Part shown: positions 33,001 to 36,000 of the stretch, piece after piece
Layout of the letters: each line of letters begins with the position of its first letter
Position numbering within the stretch: the first letter of the stretch is position 1
Origin: a virus
Lineage: Duplodnaviria > Heunggongvirae > Uroviricota > Caudoviricetes
IMG/VR virus record: IMGVR_UViG_2721755725_000014
DNA length: 39,038 nt
Strand: one strand, 5' to 3'
Program-made: the position numbers

Positions 33001-36000
33001 AATATTTTAAGTTGCAAGTTGGCTATTCGTAGGAATAGAACCTTAGGCATGCTGAATGCGTTTTCTGAACATTGTTTTATAAACTGTGTCTGCTTGCTGT
33101 TGTGATCCTGCTTTTAGTGATGGTGATGATGGATTTCACCAGCAGGATAATGTTGGTACTGACTGATGGCGCTCTGGTCTGCGGCATTGTGGTATTGCTG
33201 TGGCCGATGATGAAAGAACAGAATGAATAATTCTTGACTTTTTTGTTTACTGTTTATTAAAAAATCAACCGCATGGTGAATCCTCCTTGGAGGGGCTAAA
33301 TGATCGAGTTTTAAGGGCACGTAGCGAGTTCTGTTTGATCATTGCAGAACTTAGCGGGAGGCGCCATGCGTACATCACTAGTGTTATTCCTTTTATCATT
33401 TTCCTTGTGAGTTCTGGCTGCGCATTGCGCAGCCTTTTTTTTATGACCTGCCACTGGCAGATGGTCATCCTGTGATTTGATTCCGCTTCCGGCTTTTTAA
33501 CTCTGTTCCTCTACACGGGAGAAATTCGATGTCGATTAAACATTACGATGTTGTCAGGGCGGCGTCGCCGTCAGACCTTGCGGAAAAGCTGACACACAAA
33601 CTGAAAGAGGGCTGGCAGCCATACGGCGGACCGGTTGCCATTACGCCGTACACACTGATGCAGGCGGTGGCTATTGAAGGAGAGCCACAGGTCGGCCCTT
33701 CATCTGAGCCGGATTGGTACTACGTCATCGTACTGGCCGGGCAATCCAATGCCATGGCTTACGGTGAAGGGCTTCCGCTGCCGGATTCATACGATGCTCC
33801 GGATCCGCGCATTAAACAGCTGGCGCGCCGCAGTACAGTGACGCCGGGCGGGGCTGCCTGCAGATATAACGATATTATTCCGGCTGACCACTGTCTGCAT
33901 GATGTGCAGGATATGAGTACGCTGAATCATCCGAGGGCTGACCTGAGCAAAGGGCAGTACGGCTGTGTCGGCCAGGGTTTACATATTGCCAAAAAACTGC
34001 TCCCGTATATCCCGAATAACGCGGGGATCCTGCTGGTACCATGCTGTCGTGGTGGTTCGGCATTTACCCAGGGCGCGGAGGGGACATTCAGCGAGTCCAC
34101 GGGGGCCAGTCAGGATTCGGCACGCTGGGGGGTGGGCAAGCCGTTATATCAGGATCTGATTTCCCGCACAAAAGCGGCATTGCAGAAAAATCCCAAAAAC
34201 GTTCTGCTGGCCGTCTGCTGGATGCAGGGTGAGTTTGACATGAGCGCCGCCACCCACGTACAGCAACCTGCGCTGTTTACAGCCATGCTGACACAGTTTC
34301 GTGCTGACCTCTCCGTGTTTAACGCGCAGTGCCATGGTGGCAGTGCTGCAGATGTGCCGTGGGTTTGTGGTGACACGACGTATTACTGGAAAAATACATA
34401 CGCTACCCAGTACGACACCGTGTACGGCGGGTATAAAAACAGGGAGAGTGAGGGCGTTTATTTTGTGCCCTTCATGACAGACGGTAACGGCGTCAATACC
34501 GCCACTAACGCGCCGGCAGAAGATCCGGATATTCCGGCATCAGGATATTACGGTGCGGCATCGAGAACGAATGGAAACCAGGTATCATCAAACCGCCCGA
34601 CACATTTCAGTTCATGGGCGCGCAGGAGCATTATTCCGGATCGTCTGGCAACCGCTATTCTGAACGCAGCCGGGCGCACCTCAGCCTTCATCAGTGGTAA
34701 GGCACCGGAAATCAAACCCTCGCCCGGCGGCAACACGCCATCGGGTCCGTCTGCAGATACGTCCGTTCGCACAATCTCCCTGCTGCCGGCAGCCGGAGAG
34801 GCTGCTGCGCAGGGCTGGAGCATTAAGGATGGCGGAATTCAGTTGTCAGATGGTGTATTTAAGATCACCAAGCAGAGCAATAAAACCTGGTCCCTGACGC
34901 ATCCGGTGGATGACGCAATTACCCTGCTGACACAGGGCGGCAGACAGACCTGTAAGTTCCGCCTGTCAGGCGCACTGACCAACAATCAGTTCGGGCTGGG
35001 GATTTATCTGTATACGGATGCTCCCGTTCCTGATGGTGTGGCGATGACGGGTACCGGTAATCCGTTCCTGATGTCGTACTTCACTCAGACCACTGACGGC
35101 AGAGTGAATCTGATGCATCACAGGAAAGCCGGAAACACGAAGCTGGGGGAGTTCGGCGATTACGGTAACGACTGGCAGACGCTGGAGCTGGTGTTCACCG
35201 CCGGCAGTGCCACGGTTACTCCGAAACTGAATGGAGTGGCTGGCCCGGCATTCCAGGTTATAAAAGACAGTCTGACACTGGGACTGAATGCGCTGACGCT
35301 GACGGATGTTACAAAAAATGCAGCGTATGGCGTTGAGATAGAAAGTCTGATGCTGGAGATAAATGCACCGGCAGCATAATAAAAAAAGCCAGCGACTGAC
35401 CTGAAAAAGAAGACGCTGGCTAAAAGGCCTTATATGTTTGTAGAGACTTATTTTTCACAGACAGCAATGATGCCTGTCAATATATTATCAATATGCGGAT
35501 TGTTTCAGTTACAGATGCCTTATTAAGGAAAAAAACAGCCAGCACTGACTTTCGGTGGAGAGGTGCTGGCTCAAAAGGATAGATGTACTTCACATGTTGC
35601 TTCTATATGGCAGTACATTTTCTGACAGACAGTGACGGATGTTGTCAAGATATTGTGTCATTTATAACCTGAATCAGGGGAGGCCGGAATGTTATCTGGC
35701 ATTTTTAGCAGAGCCTGAATGCCATAATCACGGCTCCCGGCGTTGGCCGTCAGTGGGTGACACTGGCGGCTTTTTTGTTTTTCTTTACTTTCATTTTCTG
35801 TCGGCGGTGACGGAGACATACATCAGATGGAAAAAATCACAACAGGTGTGTCATACACCACGTCAGCGGTGGGGACGGGATACTGGTTACTGCAGCTGCT
35901 GGACAAAGTCTCTCCGTCCCAGTGGGTGGCAATAGGTGTGCTGGGAAGTCTGCTGTTTGGCCTGCTGACGTATCTGACAAATCTTTATTTCAAGATTAAA

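Follow-up and report, generated by a model that had tools for sequence, protein, structure and literature searches.

The 447-bp spacer between the nanS-p and S genes of the phage DNA analysed here corresponds, at a probability of about 0.88, to pasA in a lambdoid (Stx-phage-like) prophage. Two tandem paralogous small RNA (sRNA) genes would run leftward through the spacer and converge with the Q-dependent late operon. Unit 2 corresponds to PasA and unit 1 to EcOnc52, so the locus itself is already known. An unannotated spacer in an EHEC O111 prophage is thereby assigned to a validated Hfq-dependent sRNA, PasA, and its sibling EcOnc52. In both RefSeq and the curated phage 434 record, bare terminators alone are marked in this spacer. 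The sole point that appears to be undescribed in the accessible literature is that pasA stands in a conserved tandem pair with a diverged paralogue, whereas according to Zhu et al. 2026 pasA copies lie at least 22 kb apart and have not arisen by tandem duplication. The result is modest and opens no new kind of biology. The features are listed below by position in the window, that is, the whole analysed stretch of 39,038 nucleotides (IMG/VR record IMGVR_UViG_2721755725_000014).

33529-35379, plus strand: nanS-p, SASA-family sialate O-acetylesterase, left neighbour of the spacer
35378-35613, minus strand: PasA minor isoform, 236 nt (the minor 3' end 743264 in Table S6 of PMC8550237 equals window position 35378)
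35381-35445, minus strand: unit 1 sRNA (EcOnc52 type), about 65 nt, 5' end predicted by analogy with PasA (EcOnc52, RIL-seq, covariance model 59.6 bits)
35387-35421, minus strand: unit 1 terminator hairpin, AGCCAGCG / CGCUGGCU, then a U-tract to 35381 (fold z = -3.9; phage 434 annotation)
35451-35480, minus strand: unit 1 promoter-like site, -35 TTGACA (35480-35475), 18-nt spacer, TGn and GAAAAA
35613 to 35529, minus strand: PasA sRNA, 85-nt major form, unit 2 (E2348/69 identity, Table S6 coordinates, probe match, covariance model 87.9 bits)
35537-35571, minus strand: PasA terminator hairpin, AGCCAGCAC / GUGCUGGCU, then G and U7 at 35529-35535 (fold, family covariation, phage 434 annotation)
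35619-35648, minus strand: pasA promoter-like site, -35 TTGACA (35648-35643), 18-nt spacer, TGn and an A-rich -10-like CAGAAA (35627-35619)
35745-35781, plus strand: intrinsic terminator, rightward (late strand), 11 pairs, 7 of them G-C, 5-nt loop, then TTTTTGTTTT; 46 nt before S
35827-36033, plus strand: S, class II (S21-type) pinholin, right neighbour of the spacer

The prophage locus and PasA

Unit 2 is, by identity, PasA, the pathogenicity-associated sRNA A. Window positions 35355-35840 match 743241-743726 of E. coli O127:H6 E2348/69 (NC_011601.1) at 486 of 486 positions. In this EPEC strain, PasA was seen by northern blot and is Hfq-dependent (Pearl Mizrahi et al. 2021, PMC8550237), with pasA RNA reduced in an hfq mutant (log2FC -2.78, padj 8e-17; Table S2). 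Table S6 of the same paper places PasA between E2348C_0688 and E2348C_0689, with the directionality '> < >', and gives a minus-strand major form of 85 nt from 743499 to 743415 and a minor 236-nt form that ends at 743264. With its 3' end at 35378, the 236-nt form passes the first terminator and stops at that of unit 1. The published northern probe, GCCAGCACTGACTTTCGGTGGAGAG, matches window positions 35538-35562 exactly. Among Hfq-bound RNAs in EPEC, PasA ranks with the most abundant and best connected, with 41 RIL-seq interactions and the target motif CUG(A/U)UGCUGG, which is complementary to GCCAGCACCU, the 5' arm of the PasA terminator (PMC8550237). The EHEC homologues EcOnc51 and EcOnc52 were also noted there. 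An Hfq-dependent RNA of about 85 nt, as shown for the identical sequence in E2348/69, is to be expected from unit 2.

The other marks of the PasA/PasC family are found in unit 2 as well. It matches in sequence, lies between the esterase and the holin/lysozyme genes on the opposite strand, and ends in a 3' stem-loop with poly-U that carries compensatory changes across variants. The preprint of Zhu, Shabalina and Storz (2026) likewise places pasA between sialic acid esterase and holin/lysozyme genes and takes phage YYZ-2008 (NC_011356) as representative; the YYZ-2008 spacer is 99.3% identical to that of the window. The spacer is 100% identical in the phage 434 record OL657226, where two minus-strand terminators and one plus-strand terminator are annotated at its positions. 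No characterisation of the biological function of PasA or its family was found in the accessible literature, and a literature search found no further papers on EcOnc52 or PasA function.

The spacer length in the first-pass annotation is borne out by the open reading frames, with nanS-p ending at 35379 and S starting at 35827. The gene order is Q, two membrane proteins, a PasD2 copy, nanS-p, the pasA spacer, S, R, and an integrase gene, and the window matches EHEC O111 chromosomes. Among complete E. coli genomes the spacer is present in 692 of 5426 (about 13%), at a median of 5 places per genome. A scan of 185,579 species representatives found the tandem pair in Escherichia albertii only; the eight matches in unrelated taxa were single and at the level expected by chance.

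Several observations concern the surroundings of the locus. Directly upstream of nanS-p, at 33271-33442 on the plus strand, lies an exact 172-nt copy of the E2348/69 PasD2 sRNA with its own terminator, GCTGCGCATTGCGCAGC plus T8. The esterase is thus flanked by PasD2 and PasA, an arrangement reported for E2348/69. Near the 3' end of nanS-p, CTGATGCTGGA (35347-35357, plus strand) is a listed PasA RIL-seq target-motif site (E2348C_0688), so PasA may pair in trans with the mRNA of its neighbour. In the region of about 36500-37620, homology to phage 434 ends directly past the endolysin gene R (36033-36530) and gives way to a tyrosine integrase gene. Spanin genes are absent; the lysis cassette is therefore truncated, and the prophage is probably cryptic. 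Directly upstream of the intact Q gene are lpxR, encoding a lipid A deacylase (29933-30892, minus strand), and a truncated second antiterminator gene (about 29718-29789, plus strand), an arrangement that points to a mosaic of two late-region modules. On the minus strand, at 2724-2840 and 26161-26277, a pair of identical ALIL frameshift pseudoknots (Rfam RF01497, 121.5 bits each) marks two IS3-family (IS1203/IS629-like) copies.

Putative promoters, terminators and the wider family

The two units recur at a fixed distance. The direct repeats AAAAA(A/C)AGCCAGC and GCTGGCT(A/C)AAA are spaced exactly 150 bp apart, and the units align at 72% column identity, in agreement with the earlier description of two diverged units of about 150 bp. 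The A-tract and hairpin with paired substitutions that had been noticed in each unit are also present. The hairpins are AGCCAGCG/CGCTGGCT at 35387-35421 in unit 1 and AGCCAGCAC/GTGCTGGCT at 35537-35571 in unit 2. Both stems have 8-9 bp, and the PasA terminator loop has 17 nt. Comparison of the stems shows both members of one pair altered (G:C to A:U) and an additional pair in unit 2 only. A single double change between two units is weak evidence of covariation.

On the plus strand, A-runs lie 5' of both hairpins and nothing U-rich lies 3'. On the minus strand, both hairpins run into U7, as Rho-independent terminators do; the A-tracts thus identify the hairpins as minus-strand terminators. The unit 1 terminator abuts the esterase stop codon. 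A 5' hairpin appears in the single-sequence fold of PasA but is not kept in PasA-2-type or other class sequences, and conserved structure is therefore claimed for the terminator stem alone. Small open reading frames in the spacer (30 aa on the plus strand, 38 aa on the minus strand) were set aside, as they overlap terminators and promoters and are impossible in single-unit loci.

Upstream of each transcribed body lies the conserved block that had been reported per unit. On the minus strand the two blocks, 168 bp apart, read AATAT(A/C)TTGACA-N10-CTGTCTGT(G/C)A(A/G)AAA, with a perfect -35, an 18-nt spacer, TGn and an A-rich -10-like hexamer. The pattern AATATNTTGACAN10CTGTCTGT has two matches in the window and none in 100 shuffles. 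By their sequence the blocks would be sigma-70-like promoters, and the assignment of exact elements is likewise provisional. Six nucleotides separate the pasA promoter-like site from the downstream 5' end reported for PasA (35613), an end that Zhu et al. 2026 attribute to processing of a longer transcript. The -10 elements of both units are weak (3/6 matches), which is why a consensus promoter scan did not call the sites. The unit 1 block is kept wherever unit 1 occurs, including loci in which it stands alone. Each promoter-like site is preceded by a short perfect palindrome, CCTTATTAAGG (35519-35529) for unit 1 and CCTGAATCAGG (35669-35679) for unit 2, at distances that differ between the units. 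They could be chance or a regulator site.

The arrangement had first been likened to a late promoter unit. As to the promoter this does not hold, as the conserved blocks are sigma-70-like with a TTGACA -35. Moreover, Q ends at 32058, about 3.3 kb upstream, so that pR' cannot be in the spacer. The proposed tandem unit of promoter, short structured RNA and terminator was right in layout and wrong in strand: it runs on the minus strand, convergent with the late operon, and the hairpins are themselves the terminators.

The strong terminator noted before S does exist, at 35745-35781 with its 11 pairs, but it is a feature separate from the duplicated units. Its predicted activity follows from a G+C-rich stem, a short loop and a U-rich tail, the usual criteria for a Rho-independent terminator. 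It is near-invariant in 120 related loci, a U-G wobble in its stem fits the plus strand only, and the phage 434 record annotates it. Polymerase modified by Q reads through terminators. The plus-strand terminator would therefore block un-antiterminated rightward transcription only, for instance from moron promoters through nanS-p, and in this way would insulate S and R.

The family was surveyed by scanning IMG/VR with the promoter pattern, which gave 120 loci and 57 distinct units in five classes: A (PasA), A2 (PasA-2), C (PasC), D (stem AGCCAGUAC) and U1. In the most frequent layout, a unit of class A, A2 or D precedes by 167-169 bp a U1 unit that adjoins the stop codon of the esterase. C, D and U1 units also occur singly. 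A less biased sample was anchored on the 3' end of the esterase gene; of its 108 loci, 105 have one or more units with promoter and terminator, and 69 have two. Hybrids combine a PasA body or a U1 body with a PasC terminator; judged from these sequences, 5' bodies and terminators are exchanged as modules. Several IMG/VR copies are cut by IS insertions inside the sRNA body or the terminator (PasA-3-like variants).

Alignment of 25 distinct family RNAs bears on the earlier argument that covariation points to selection on the stem, and this argument gains strength from it. At four of the ten terminator pairs both partners are substituted (for example C:G to U:A and G:C to A:U), and pairing is kept in 93% of cells, compared with 21-54% in slid controls. 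The observed covariation score is reached by no shuffle, and RNAalifold gives the same 10-pair stem. Conservation of the hairpin in related phages had been named as a test, and the stem is kept.

Strand, and the possible independence of unit 1

The hairpins could instead act on the plus strand, within the late or nanS-p transcript, either as a late promoter with a short RNA and terminator or as processing or antitermination sites. The late transcript must cross the spacer, and the plus strand folds well over both units (z = -2.4 and -2.9). Such folding is expected, however, because the hairpins are nearly symmetric between the strands. Neither hairpin has the U-tract that it would need on its 3' side on this strand, and Q and pR' lie about 3.3 kb away. 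U-G pairs in PasC-type stems (six sequences) would be C-A on the plus strand and thus fit the minus strand only. With a covariance model built from the 25-RNA alignment, the window yields two minus-strand copies and no more (87.9 and 59.6 bits), against 16 bits for the plus-strand hairpin; as the window units were included in the model, this match shows strand and copy number, not independent discovery. In the published probe and RNA-seq data, too, PasA lies on the other strand from the esterase and holin genes (PMC8550237). We regard a plus-strand role as very improbable.

Unit 1 on the minus strand has a counterpart in EHEC. EcOnc51 and EcOnc52 are Hfq-CRAC peaks in E. coli O157:H7 Sakai (Tree et al. 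2014, PMC4104026, Table S2). EcOnc51, in Sp12, covers the 3' half of a unit 2 of PasA-2 type. The EcOnc52 peak, TCTCTACAAACATATAAGGCC...CTGGCTCTTTTTTT in Sp4, corresponds to unit 1; in the Sakai sequence, EcOnc52 is unit 1 from TCTCTACAAACAT... to the U-tract. The sequence CUCUACAAACAUAUAAGGCC is specific to unit 1. RIL-seq chimeras at 743267-743294 on the minus strand translate to window positions 35381-35408, where the unit 1 3' end has five partners and is always RNA2. Alignment, the promoter pattern and the covariance model all show unit 1 to be homologous to PasA/PasC in its promoter and terminator. In Sakai Sp4 (NC_002695.2, 1182130), IS629/IS1203 is inserted about 25 bp upstream of the unit 1 -35 and replaces everything upstream of the unit 1 promoter, so that the PasA-type unit is gone. 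Most likely, unit 1 fires also from its own promoter, giving the RNA of about 65 nt known as EcOnc52. A fuller reading makes unit 1 an independently transcribed sRNA with its own seed and a diverged tandem pasA paralogue that surveys have missed, with the two genes forming a lysogeny-specific cassette from which recombination yields PasC-like singles. We hold it tentatively, at a little under even odds.

Two other accounts of the minus-strand units have to be weighed. Unit 1 may be a decayed duplicate that serves as a fail-safe second terminator for PasA read-through and shields nanS-p from antisense transcription, the 236-nt isoform then explaining all Hfq signal from unit 1. For Pearl Mizrahi et al., the unit 1 region is the 3' extension that ends the minor form of PasA (PMC8550237), and the unit 1 -10 is weak. 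EcOnc52 reads map to multiple places, since the unit 1 sequence is identical in Sp4 and Sp12, and the peak could therefore derive from read-through PasA-2 transcripts. Against a mere fail-safe terminator, the terminator and the promoter block, comprising the -35, some of the spacer, TGn and the A-rich -10, are the best-conserved parts between the units, whereas the transcribed 5' body has diverged. Unit 1 also stands alone with its promoter in Sakai Sp4 and in five IMG/VR loci, and 1 nt separates the start of the EcOnc52 peak from the one predicted for unit 1. On balance we consider decay unlikely, though deserving of real weight. A more general doubt is that both units are mere transcription insulators at a convergent junction, that is, terminators with spurious promoters whose released RNAs are by-products without regulatory function. 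No published phenotype or validated target for PasA or EcOnc52 was found, as this account would have it. It fits poorly with the 41 interactions of PasA in EPEC and their shared motif complementary to its terminator arm, with the retention of the cassette in about 13% of complete E. coli genomes at a median of five places, and with the modular exchange of 5' bodies among family members, and we judge it improbable.

For the preferred reading of two leftward sRNA genes, the following scheme is proposed. Both genes would be expressed in the lysogen, in an otherwise silent late region, from their own sigma-70 promoters. Each unit would consist of such a promoter, a short variable 5' body and a conserved Rho-independent terminator with an 8-9 bp stem and U7. 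A terminator with U7 is the usual Hfq-binding module in RNAs of this kind. Unit 2 would give the 85-nt PasA, and its loose, leaky terminator with the 17-nt loop may let some transcripts through. These would stop at the unit 1 terminator as the 236-nt form, and the same terminator would keep leftward transcription out of nanS-p. In the lysogen, both RNAs would work together with Hfq and target mRNAs of host and prophage in trans. As late transcripts are fully antisense to both sRNAs, induction should silence them; if unit 1 is independent, induction would shut both genes off and make them lysogeny-specific regulators. Tandem pairing also alters the reading of pasA copy number, of variants such as PasC as a collapsed pair, and of the RIL-seq feature 'pasA.E2348C_0688.IGR'.

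Comparison with known sRNA systems

The closest known system is PasA of the E2348/69 prophage PP2. Its spacer is identical and has the same neighbours (SASA esterase and class II holin), and it shares the antisense orientation, the 85-nt RNA and the terminator with U7. The sole difference from unit 2 is the host, O127:H6 there and an EHEC O111-type chromosome here. EcOnc52 of Sakai differs from unit 1 in a loop shorter by 2 nt and one extra C before the U-tract. EcOnc51 and EcOnc52 were listed as predicted sRNAs only, without northern blot, and their tandem paralogy was not described (PMC4104026). EcOnc15 (Sakai Sp15), considered as a plus-strand partner, was rejected, as it sits between Q and stx1A and is unrelated. 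PasC of E2348/69 PP5 shares the promoter, and its 5' body resembles that of PasA. Its terminator stem (AGCCAGCG) is of the unit 1 type and adjoins the stop codon of the esterase, but PasC is a single unit with a shorter loop. From its sequence, PasC looks like a tandem pair collapsed by recombination between terminator-proximal repeats.

The AgvB/AsxR anti-sRNAs (RF02702, RF02703) are also short, Hfq-bound and antisense in the moron region downstream of pR' of lambdoid prophages, with a conserved 3' terminator module and a variable 5' end. They are located upstream of the esterase, whereas PasA is downstream, and PasA pairs mostly with mRNAs, not sRNAs. Within 35300-35900, Rfam gives no relevant family at the gathering threshold or at E <= 10, RF02702 and RF02703 included. 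Membership in AgvB/AsxR was rejected for want of a sequence or structure match in this covariance search. A lambdoid late promoter unit of pR', short RNA and tR' was rejected as well, because Q is far upstream and the plus strand has A-tracts 5' and no U-tract 3'.

Side-by-side paralogues among sRNA genes are known from OmrA/OmrB and PrrF1/PrrF2, where each gene carries a promoter and a terminator of its own and the sequences agree at one end only. Read-through of PrrF1/PrrF2 gives the longer isoform PrrH in Pseudomonas. The pair described here differs from both in being phage-borne, in that its conserved part is the 3' end together with the promoter, and in that independent firing of the second unit is putative.
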